A DNA stretch of 64,000 nt from Escherichia coli (GTDB lineage Bacteria; Pseudomonadota; Gammaproteobacteria; Enterobacterales; Enterobacteriaceae), in assembly GCF_003018115.1 (NCBI RefSeq), contig NZ_CP027457.1; one strand, 5' to 3'. Position 1 is the stretch's first letter. Each line of letters starts with the position of its first letter. The position numbers were made by a program. Of this stretch, positions 3,001-6,000 are shown piece after piece.

Positions 3001-6000
3001 ATGAGGATTACCTGAAATGGCTGGACCAGTGTCTGGCGCAGTTCTGGCGGGTGCTGAAACCTGCCGGAAGTCTTTACCTGTTCTGTGGCCATCGCCTGGC
3101 ATCTGACATTGAAATCATGATGCGTGAACGCTTCAGTGTGCTGAACCATATTATCTGGGCGAAGCCGTCCGGACGCTGGAACGGGTGCAACAAGGAAAGC
3201 CTGAGGGCGTATTTCCCCGCCACAGAGCGCATTCTGTTCGCGGAACATTATCAGGGGCCGTATCGTCCGAAAGATGCCGGGTATGAGGCGAAGGGCAGGG
3301 CACAGAAACAGCATGTGATGGCACCGCTGATTGCTTACTTTCGTGATGCGCGTGCTGCCCTGGGGATAACGGCAAAACAGATTGCTGATGCCACAGGAAA
3401 GAAAAACATGGTGTCGCACTGGTTCAGTGCCAGTCAGTGGCAGCTACCGAACGAAAGCGATTATCTGAAATTACAGGCGCTGTTTGCCCGGGTGGCAGAA
3501 GAGAAGCATCAGCGCGGTGAACTGGAAAAGCCCCACCACCAGCTGCTGGAGACGTATACTTCACTGAACCGGCAGTATGCGGAACTGCAGAGTGAATATA
3601 AGCATCTGCGGCGGTATTTTGGCGTGACGGCGCAGGTGCCGTACACGGATGTGTGGACGCATAAACCGGTGCAGTACTATCCCGGGAAACATCCGTGCGA
3701 AAAACCGGCAGAAATGCTGCAGCAGATAATCAGCGCGAGCAGTCGTCCGGGGGACCTGGTTGCAGATTTTTTCATGGGGTCGGGTTCGACAGTCAAAGCC
3801 GCGATGGCGCTGGGGCGTCGTGCAACTGGCGTTGAGCTGGAGACTGAACGTTTTGAGCAGACGGTCAGGGAAGTTCAGGATTTAGTCAGTCAGAACGGAT
3901 GATATTGCAGGATTAGTTACGTACCGTTATTATCCTGCGCCGGCCCTTTAGCTCAGTGGTGAGAGCGAGCGACTCATAATCGCCAGGTCGCTGGTTCAAA
4001 TCCAGCAAGGGCCACCATATCACATACCGCCATTAGCTCATCGGGATAGAGCGCCAGCCTTCGAAGCTGGCTGCGCGGGGTTCGAGTCCTCGATGGCGGT
4101 CCATTATCTGCATTATGCGTTGTTGGTTCTGATGAGTGAATCATTGTCTTTTGAGCAACAGGCTATCATATAAGATAGCCTCAGACTTCCTTGTTTATTC
4201 TCGCCGGATGCTTCGTAGATATTTGCAGGCATCTGTATGCAGGGGTATTATTGCGGCATATATCATCCGGAAAAATAAAAACCACATGCTGATCCGGAGA
4301 TGATAGTTACAAGTCCTCCCGGATCCCGCATATTTACTATATTTTATAGATAATTGTTCTTGTTAATATGGAGATGGATAAATGTATTGCCGTGCTGTAC
4401 CGGTTCTTGTTTTGATATTAGCTAGTCTGACAACTGGCTGCACAAAAGATGTATCGACAAATAATTATGATGCTTCTCTGTATCACTCAGATAAATTAAT
4501 AAAGTCGCAAAATTTGAGCTCATCGGAACGTACCCCTGATGCCAGTGAAGAAATCCGGCAGTATGCCATTCAGGTCAGGAAAGCCATAGAAGAACAGTTA
4601 AAGGATGCGAGTAAGTATTCAGGAAAAGAGTGTTCACTGAGAATGTATATGGCCCCGAATGGTCTTCTGCTACAGGTTAAAAGAGAAAGCGGTGATCCCG
4701 ATTTATGTCGTGAAGCGATGAATGCAGTAAAGAATGCTGATATACCATCACCACCGTCTTCAGGAGTATATAAAGTATTTAGAAATGGCGTGCTGGATTT
4801 TAAACTCTGACAGGGGGAGAAGATTTTCTCCTGTCCTGATGATTTTGGGGCGCTGGAAAGATATTGTGCTGTGAAGTGTTAAATCCCTCACAATTCAGTA
4901 AGTTGACAGTTGCCTGTCAGACTGAGCATTTGTTAAAAAAATTTCGCATGGTGAATCCCCCTGTGCGGAGGGGCGACTGGTGAACGGTATGATCTCTTTG
5001 ATGATCGTAAGCGAGAATACGCGGGTTTGGTGTCACCGGGCTGAACTCACCGGGAGGCACCCGGCACCATGCTCATGGTGATACAGAAATGCGGCTTCAG
5101 CCCCTCTCCGGAGGGGCTTTCTTATGGACAAAAAAAGCCCGCGCTGGGAGACGCGGGCGGCAAGGAATAAACAATAAAACGTGAAGTAATACTTCAACTG
5201 GCGAATAATACCCGACAGTAATCACTCTGCGCAATAGCGTGGCCTTTTTCGAATTGCGGGCTGTAGTCTCCCTTCTGCCGGGTGTCCTGGTTGCAGATTT
5301 CTTCATGGGGTAGGGTTCGGCAGTTAAAGCAGCGATGGCGCTGGGGCGTCGTGCAACTGGCGTTGAGCTGGATACCGGGCGTTTTGAACAGACTGCGCAG
5401 GAAATCAGGGATGTATTTAGCGGGAGCGGTTTGCAGAAGTAATCTCCCAAAATGCCATTTTTGGAATATACTGGTATTAAGTCTTTTTGCTCAGGTTAAT
5501 TCAAAATGGATGTTGCCTGCTCTGTGGTCCTGATTCGCTATCCGATAGATATTTTTCTTGAAAAAGAAAAAGTTTCACTCGATGCCGGAAGTGTTATGCT
5601 TGTTGCCAGAAATATAAGAGGGCTTTTCTGTGCTTATGCCGACAGAGTGAAAATGGCAGATATAAGTAACAGCGTCGTCAATCAGTATCTGGAAAGGGTG
5701 TGTGAACTGACGGAGTATACACCGACAAAAATGCCTCTTTATTTGATGTCTGATATTTACAATACGGAACTGGCGGAGGCTTTAATAACCCAGCATAGTG
5801 AATCCAGTGATACTTTGAAGGATTTCTCTGTTATAACCGCATTTTCATGTATCTCCTTATTTGCAACAGACAGGCGTCTGCCATTATTTTTGTCCGGTGC
5901 TGTAAATAATATCAGCTGTAAAGTAAGGGCTATAATTCAGACTGACATATCGGCAGGCTGGATGCTAGGTGTGATTGCATTACAATTGCATATGAGCGAA

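Follow-up and report, generated by a model that had tools for sequence, protein, structure and literature searches.

Two conserved intergenic blocks, A and B, lie in a 64,000-nucleotide (nt) stretch of Escherichia coli DNA (contig NZ_CP027457.1; hereafter the window), and they are two copies of a known but uncharacterised small RNA (sRNA) gene of Shiga-toxin-type prophages, EcOnc08/EcOnc42, which has no name of its own and is not in Rfam. At 100% identity, the window corresponds to prophage DNA of E. coli 07-4299; 78 complete genomes have the whole arrangement. The region concerned is the late region of this lambdoid prophage, with the plus strand running in the late direction of PR'. We consider it likely (probability about 0.72) that each block is a complete minus-strand gene for an Hfq-binding sRNA of ~70 nt in copy A and 79 nt in copy B, with its own sigma-70 promoter, TTGCGC-18-TATTAT. 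This reading draws on the anatomy of the sequence, on homology to RNAs that were crosslinked to Hfq, on homology of the promoter to promoters mapped by rapid amplification of cDNA ends (RACE), and on the compensatory maintenance of the terminator. What is new here is the delimitation of promoter, start and seed, a promoter frame held in common with AsxR and AgvB, the description of allelic variants, and the origin of the two copies in tandem cassettes.

Tree et al. 2014 (PMC4104026) listed in their Table S2 the peaks of Hfq crosslinking and analysis of cDNA (CRAC) that have predicted or observed terminators in enterohaemorrhagic E. coli (EHEC) O157:H7 Sakai. Three of these, EcOnc08, EcOnc21 and EcOnc42 (Table 1), were annotated there as mutual homologues, all antisense to PR', and gave a northern signal of ~271 nt. 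On the Sakai chromosome, the EcOnc08 peak covers the terminator and the conserved core of the block (positions 2439-2511 of our locus L006), and the EcOnc21 and EcOnc42 peaks map to the sequence just upstream. Over 151 nt (window 5125-5275), the copy A block shares 93.4% identity with phage VT1-Sakai. Copy A is ~94% identical to the three crosslinked RNAs, and the homologous loci at which such an RNA was seen are 93-95% identical to it; its predicted RNA, when aligned, has 4 differences in 70 nt from Sp4 EcOnc08. Copy B is 79% identical to A and has the 28-nt core intact. Both copies also sit in the published slot, antisense to PR', convergent with an STnc100 gene and placed between moron coding sequence and nanS-p, copy A being without the nanS-p side because of a cassette junction. 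In later papers EcOnc42 is still described as an Stx1-phage sRNA whose target is unknown.

Binding to Hfq in vivo has been seen for homologues both in Sakai, by CRAC, and in enteropathogenic E. coli (EPEC), by the sequencing of interacting RNAs after their ligation (RIL-seq). Prophage PP6 of EPEC E2348/69 carries an identical copy of the RNA, and the EPEC RIL-seq study reported this same RNA as a newly identified accessory-genome sRNA candidate, E2348C_1409.E2348C_1408.IGR, whose target motif complements the seed at its CUUGCC end. At the PP6 locus (L220, 4481-5025) an ISEc13 insertion truncates the STnc100 partner, and the EcOnc08-type gene and its promoter are intact; the recovery of this copy by RIL-seq despite the truncated STnc100 indicates that the sRNA needs no intact convergent partner. 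[quoted passage not shown]

A sequence-only reading of the window had placed the two copies at 5130-5270 and 7870-8010, each opening on the plus strand with an A-run and a hairpin. Both copies are indeed found there, and a terminator scan called both hairpins as minus-strand intrinsic terminators, with 8 and 10 base pairs, respectively. On the plus strand, copy A (5130-5158) has A7 (5130-5136) followed by GCCCGCGCTGGGAGACGCGGGC, with the hairpin at 5137-5158, and copy B (7869-7898) has A9 (7869-7877) followed by a hairpin of the CCGCTCCTGGGAAGAGCGG type at 7876-7898. The conserved block is real as well, its extent now being refined to a unit of promoter, RNA and terminator of ~105-115 bp (5130-5234 and 7869-7983). 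The sequence to the right of this unit is the nanS-p leader, which copy A retains only to ~5275. As for the proposed minus-strand RNA of ~100 nt with a strong terminator, minus-strand RNAs that end at the homologous hairpins have been seen experimentally, and the lengths we predict are 70 and 79 nt instead. The two copies do bracket the island of the AraC-family regulator and most of the STnc100 array, and each lies directly 3' of an STnc100 copy. That earlier interpretation is supported and essentially right; it came without recognition of the convergent STnc100 partner, of the equivalence of the slot to that of AsxR/AgvB, and of the prior publication of the element.

When the two blocks were aligned pairwise, the mean column identity was 79% over ~210 columns, and a repeat finder paired both regions (families D6, D7, D9 and D10). 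A 31-nt core, corresponding to family D10, is almost invariant, with 94% identity between A and B. With up to 3 mismatches allowed, exactly two matches to the 28-nt core pattern ACTTCACGTTTTNTTNTTTATTCCTTGC were found in the 64 kb of the window, where 100 shuffles gave an expectation of 0.00.

The promoter hexamers stand in a frame that recurs in other sRNA genes upstream of nanS-p. An alignment of the stretches next to nanS-p, taken from the AsxR, EcOnc03, EcOnc08 and POCJ13 loci and from the window, shows an invariant TTGCGCA followed by 18 nt, and the -10 element occupies the same alignment columns, reading TAAAAT in AsxR and EcOnc03 and TATTAT in the EcOnc08-type family. A hairpin at the -35 element, GGCCGCGC..GCGCAG, is conserved at the AsxR, EcOnc03 and EcOnc08 loci. 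Primary (triphosphate) 5' ends of AsxR and EcOnc03 were located by RNA ligase-mediated RACE 6-7 nt downstream of the -10 element (Tree et al. 2014, PMC4104026). Because the promoters of the blocks are positionally homologous to these, the predicted start of copy A is 5199 or 5198 and that of copy B is ~7947, which gives RNAs of 70 and 79 nt. At two divergent loci next to holin genes (L131 and L134), TTGCAA-18-TATTAT or TACTAT is retained, with a spacer and upstream DNA that are unrelated, and in locus L046/L133 a recombination point lies directly upstream of the -35 hairpin. The retention of the hexamers despite replacement of the spacer and upstream DNA, together with this recombination point, argues for a function of the hexamers. 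In lysogens, the plus-strand hairpin at -35 may in addition help to keep transcription from running on into nanS-p and the lysis genes.

Folding gave, for both predicted RNAs, a U-rich region of 30-40 nt that is largely unpaired and a strong terminator, with z = -4.1 for A and -4.8 for B; RNAalifold on a hand-made family alignment was unhelpful, as the A- and B-type stems are out of register, and per-sequence folds took its place. Conservation in the family alignment is highest in the core or seed, CUUCACGUUUU...AUUCCUUGCC, and U makes up 41-47% of the RNA. Copy B is a variant allele with another 5' end, another terminator stem and an 8-nt duplication in the seed, opposite which every other member of the family has a gap of 8 columns in the alignment. 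Across the 37 unique family sequences, compensatory changes maintain the pairing in the terminator. Five stem positions are changed on both sides between copies A and B, the stem of B-type members is wholly different and still paired, G-C is replaced by A-U and U-G by U-A at L149, and U-G is replaced by U-A at L134. Both copies thus have the G+C-rich stem, the U-run (U7 or U9) and the compensatory stem changes of an intrinsic terminator. Coding for a protein was ruled out by indels of 4, 7 and 8 nt within the RNA body.

Table 1. Coordinates of the two sRNA genes, their signals and neighbours in the window, and of the published homologues in Sakai prophages
Feature	Position	Strand	Basis or detail
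Copy A predicted sRNA, ~70 nt	5130..5199	-	5'-AGUUGAAGUAUUACUUCACGUUUUAUUGUUUAUUCCUUGCC, then hairpin, then U7; start predicted from promoter homology
Copy A intrinsic terminator, 8 bp (7 G-C)	5137..5158	-	Terminator scan; U7 at 5130-5136; -16.9 kcal/mol
Copy A conserved single-stranded U-rich seed AUUACUUCACGUUUUAUUGUUUAUUCCUUGC	5160..5190	-	94% identical to copy B
Copy A promoter (predicted)	5205..5234	-	-35 TTGCGC (5234-5229), 18-nt spacer, -10 TATTAT (5210-5205)
Terminator-like hairpin and T-run overlapping the -35 element	5227..5249	+	Terminator scan
Copy B predicted sRNA, ~79 nt	7869..7947	-	Alignments; fold
Copy B intrinsic terminator, 10 bp, then U9	7876..7898	-	Terminator scan; -13.6 kcal/mol
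Copy B tandem 8-nt duplication in the seed	7900..7915	-	Plus strand GCAAGGAA x2, RNA UUCCUUGC x2
Copy B promoter (predicted)	7954..7983	-	-35 TTGCGC (7983-7978), 18-nt spacer, -10 TATTAT (7959-7954)
Terminator-like hairpin and T-run overlapping the copy B -35 element	7974-7999	+	
Promoter-like site ATGCCA-17-GATAAT overlapping the nanS-p start codon	8074..8102	-	Promoter scan
STnc100 copy 1, convergent partner of copy A	4917..5129	+	Rfam RF02076, 172 bits
STnc100 copy 5, convergent partner of copy B	7679..7868	+	Rfam RF02076, 141 bits
DNA-methyltransferase 3'-end remnant	5278..5442	+	Repeat D3, 82% identical to 3747-3898; RefSeq pseudogene
EcOnc08	Sp4, 1179938-1180010	-	Hfq-CRAC, Table S2, PMC4104026
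EcOnc21	Sp4, 1180016-1180101	-	Hfq-CRAC, Table S2, PMC4104026
EcOnc42	Sp15	antisense to PR'	Hfq-CRAC, Table S2, PMC4104026

A plausible course of events would be that the RNA is produced constitutively during lysogeny, is held by Hfq through its U-tail and U-rich body, and pairs in trans, via CUUCACGUUUU...AUUCCUUGCC, with host and prophage mRNAs. The UUCCUU segment could pair with AAGGAA, its Shine-Dalgarno-like complement, and such pairing would change how the targets are translated or how stable they are. A longer antisense RNA over the nanS-p leader could also end at the copy B terminator.

Several observations weigh against a complete short sRNA gene with its own promoter. The -35 element, TTGCGC, has only 3 of 6 consensus matches, which accounts for the site being left uncalled by a generic promoter scan, and the -10 element, TATTAT, has 5 of 6. 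Since copy A is without the upstream DNA of a longer form, its expression would depend wholly on this putative promoter. Two CLASH fragments take in the TATTAT region, each CLASH hybrid that could be read comes from one read only, and the mRNA partners are candidate targets. When duplex energies of both seeds were computed against 91 translation-initiation regions of the window, none was better than with shuffled seeds. The evidence that the RNA is expressed comes from homologues in other strains. Moreover, a longer antisense read-through RNA exists in Sakai, because the only published northern probed the predicted -10 to -35 region and saw ~271 nt.

That blot, whose probe covers the sequence equivalent to 5203-5237, bears on a different reading, in which the functional RNA is a longer antisense of ~200-270 nt from the nanS-p start region to the block terminator, and the block is merely its 3' part. 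Acting in cis, such an RNA would affect the late PR' transcript or the mRNA of nanS-p, for example by occluding the nanS-p ribosome-binding site, by RNase III cleavage, or by transcriptional interference. It agrees with the EcOnc21 and EcOnc42 CRAC peaks and with CLASH fragments, which in Sakai span the nanS-p leader to ~31 nt before the ATG, and AsxR has likewise been described as antisense to the stx2AB transcript. The window also has a minus-strand promoter-like site at 8102-8074, which is probably the origin of a longer antisense RNA ending at the copy B terminator. We nonetheless think it rather unlikely that this longer species is the functional RNA. The block is kept without nanS-p and its leader in copy A (junction at ~5275), in CP-1639 (L133), and beside holin genes at L131 and L134; the separate EcOnc08 CRAC peak stops at the predicted start site; and the partners in CLASH and RIL-seq are trans-encoded mRNAs. 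A long antisense could apply to copy B only and is compatible with a short form, and the northern probe lay upstream of the predicted start site, so that the short form fell outside it.

The body of the RNA is what makes a sponge, in the manner of AsxR and AgvB, an improbable explanation. On that account an exposed region would mimic an mRNA target and titrate or destabilise a core-genome sRNA; the slot and the STnc100 convergence are the same, the -35 element and upstream hairpin are common with AsxR and EcOnc03, and bodies in the slot are interchangeable, POCJ13 having the copy B promoter and terminator with another seed. However, the Rfam models of AgvB (RF02702) and AsxR (RF02703) gave no match at E <= 10 in a 211-nt search (window 5090-5300), nor at E <= 1 in 1-14000, while the AsxR model, as a positive control, scored 88 bits in L004. 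The conserved AGUAUCUCAUGC..GCCCGAACC 3' region is absent, and the ARN4m1 distal-face motif, which is present in AgvB and EcOnc03, was found in no member of the EcOnc08-type family. In its U content the RNA resembles a classical seed-bearing sRNA, and its readable partners are mRNAs. Far less probable still is that the block has no RNA function, the hairpin with its flanking A- and T-runs only terminating transcription in both directions, or insulating, where STnc100 ends, and the remainder being phage DNA conserved by recombination. The hairpin does adjoin the terminator of STnc100, the block contains a further terminator-like hairpin on the plus strand, and prophage late regions are mosaic and highly alike between phages. 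Yet the Hfq crosslinking, CLASH and RIL-seq signals are minus-strand-specific, no T-run follows the hairpin on the plus strand, the seed is conserved above its flanks across divergent contexts, the promoter hexamers are kept while spacer and upstream sequence are replaced, and homologues have already been reported to give a discrete minus-strand RNA that depends on Hfq.

The short sRNA gene that we prefer is widespread. The block occurs in 282 phage records, and Stx-converting phages commonly have it; in phage VT1-Sakai it is flanked by stx1B and the nanS-p homologue H0032, and the same position in the Stx2 phage Sp5 holds AsxR (RF02703, 88 bits), directly after STnc100. Of 5426 complete E. 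coli genomes, 1108 carry it, with up to 6 copies each, and in none of them does an annotated feature cover it. Among 76 nanS-p upstream regions sampled from IMG/VR, 22 were EcOnc08-type, 19 were AsxR/AgvB/EcOnc03-type, 3 were POCJ13-type, with the copy B promoter and terminator and a different body, and the other 32 were of other kinds. In all, 37 unique family sequences were collected. B-type copies occur at the IMG/VR loci L136-L141, and L038 is B-type without the 8-nt duplication. A short member of the family, with the body UGAAAAAAUCUUCACGUUUUAUUCCUUGCC, is found in E. coli N64 (L134, 1440-1760), directly downstream of a moron with a scabin-related ADP-ribosyltransferase and a subtilase-type B subunit, that is, the same placing as a bookend after a toxin as is seen with stx1.

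We tentatively suggest, at somewhat worse than even odds, that the STnc100-nanS-p site is a modular sRNA cassette, in which a fixed frame receives interchangeable seed bodies, and that lambdoid phages retarget the post-transcriptional networks of the host by swapping or editing the seed, two diverged alleles of one seed class being present here. The frame may consist of a -35 element inside a plus-strand terminator hairpin, a -10 element at fixed spacing, and a terminator that abuts STnc100; the bodies so far may be those of the AsxR/AgvB/EcOnc03 type, the EcOnc08 type and the POCJ13 type. If this is true, copy A and copy B, with its duplicated UUCCUUGC, could have target sets that overlap without being the same. 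About one-fifth of complete E. coli genomes, among them EHEC, EPEC and other Shiga toxin-producing E. coli, carry the RNA, often in several copies, and its gene adjoins Shiga toxin or other toxin morons; it is an Hfq-bound prophage RNA with no name, Rfam model or annotation. A promoter common with AsxR/AgvB, joined to a different, classical U-rich seed, a delimited start, seed and terminator, and a set of natural alleles provide a basis for probes, mutants and an Rfam family.

Gene order around the blocks was taken from the RefSeq annotation, tRNA and Rfam scans, and NCBIfam. The Q antiterminator is followed by a DNA methyltransferase, tRNA-Ile(CAU), tRNA-Arg, a TolA-C-terminal-like lipoprotein, STnc100 copy 1 and block A. 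Then come a 3' remnant of the methyltransferase, a YdeO/GadX-like AraC regulator, a 92-aa open reading frame (ORF), STnc100 copies 2-5 (6889-7868) and block B, and after these the nanS-p (SASA) esterase gene (8096-10060), a holin gene and a lysozyme gene. The duplicated end of the methyltransferase indicates two moron cassettes in tandem, each closed by a module of STnc100 and the block, and for this reason the copies bracket the AraC island. The methyltransferase remnant marks the cassette junction, which explains why copy A is without the nanS-p leader.

Other features of this region were noted in passing. Besides copies 1 and 5 (Table 1), STnc100 (RF02076) occurs on the plus strand at 6889-7084, 7148-7357 and 7419-7617; four of the five copies are in tandem with a period of ~260-270 nt, each with a promoter-like 5' region, a variable centre and a terminator, and the set looks like a multi-allele sRNA array downstream of an AraC regulator. 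That regulator (5506-6231, plus strand) is most like the acid-resistance regulators YdeO/GadX, with a score of 119 bits, which is under the curated cut-off. The 92-aa ORF (6321-6599, plus strand) has no NCBIfam match and is unannotated in RefSeq. The moron protein encoded at 4382-4810 (plus strand), 142 aa and lipoprotein-like, matches the TolA C-terminal domain only and could be a decoy for phage or colicin entry. Directly after the nanS-p stop codon, a further candidate sRNA at 10062-10135 (minus strand) has a strong terminator (CCGCCAG...CTGGCGG, then U7) and a faint Esr41 match (24 bits), in a position that corresponds to EcOnc52 of Sakai Sp4 and to PasA of EPEC. The other Rfam matches at gathering level were a C4 antisense RNA beside isrK (38404-38589, minus strand), the trp operon leader (47244-47337, minus strand) and STnc180 (59772-59974, plus strand); the trp leader suggests that the prophage ends before ~47 kb.

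Comparison with known sRNA families set the block apart from most of them. Rfam assigned it no family, whether in an E-value search of 1-14000, a permissive search of 5090-5300, or a gathering-level search of the whole window; faint matches on the block to sRNA71, OmrA-B, Esr41 and Spot 42 were all far below threshold, Esr41 (RF02676) scoring 15.3 bits against a gathering value of 102 and Spot 42 (RF00021) 14.2 bits against 80. A full-text literature search for the seed sequence returned no relevant paper. An 11-nt run, UUACUUCACGU, is identical between the blocks (5179-5189 and 7927-7937, minus strand) and nt 40-50 of Spot 42 (spf); mimicry of a Spot 42 seed was rejected, since most of the run falls within a paired stretch of Spot 42 and it does no more than touch region III, and the likeness, found post hoc, is probably chance. 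Identity with a Pas sRNA was rejected as well: neither the Pas preprint nor its supplement contains the motif, PasA is EcOnc51/52, and PasD is the STnc100-like EcOnc13. Esr41, HnrS/EcOnc10-12 and PasA/EcOnc52 are likewise short, terminator-ended, multicopy prophage sRNAs that act in trans on core-genome mRNAs, but they are unrelated in sequence and have other positions in the prophage. STnc100, grouped with PasD and with EcOnc05, EcOnc13 and EcOnc27, is the convergent partner and forms with the block a co-inherited module at the 3' end of moron cassettes; it differs in its opposite strand, its length of ~200 nt, its structure and its five copies in the window.

The relation to AsxR, AgvB and EcOnc03 is one of place and promoter. 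All are found in the moron slot 3' of PR', convergent with STnc100 (AsxR lies directly after it in L004) and immediately upstream of nanS-p, and all have the upstream hairpin, TTGCGCA with the 18-nt spacing, the same -10 columns, and a short, terminator-ended RNA, bound by Hfq in these anti-sRNAs and in the homologues of the blocks. Membership of AsxR/AgvB was nonetheless rejected, as the Rfam models fail and the 3' body and ARN motif are absent. AsxR and AgvB are built of a conserved ~42-nt 3' region (AGUAUCUCAUGC..UUGCCCGAACCCAYUCGGGC) and a variable 5' end of 14-18 nt, 51-60 nt in total, with which the bodies studied here are unalignable. EcOnc08-type RNAs have an unrelated body and terminator sequence, are 70-79 nt long, are U-rich without ARN motifs, have TATTAT rather than TAAAAT as the -10 element, and show no evidence of sRNA sponging, unlike AsxR/AgvB. 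With EcOnc08, EcOnc21 and EcOnc42 the differences are those between alleles and forms: the allele in copy B has diverged, with ~79% identity over the block, copy A is without the nanS-p leader, and the published northern gave ~271 nt as against a predicted primary form of 70-79 nt. In all else the blocks agree with these three, in their strand relative to PR', their terminator, their promoter and their neighbours, STnc100 on one side and, for copy B, nanS-p on the other, and a conserved intergenic block is thereby accounted for by known biology.

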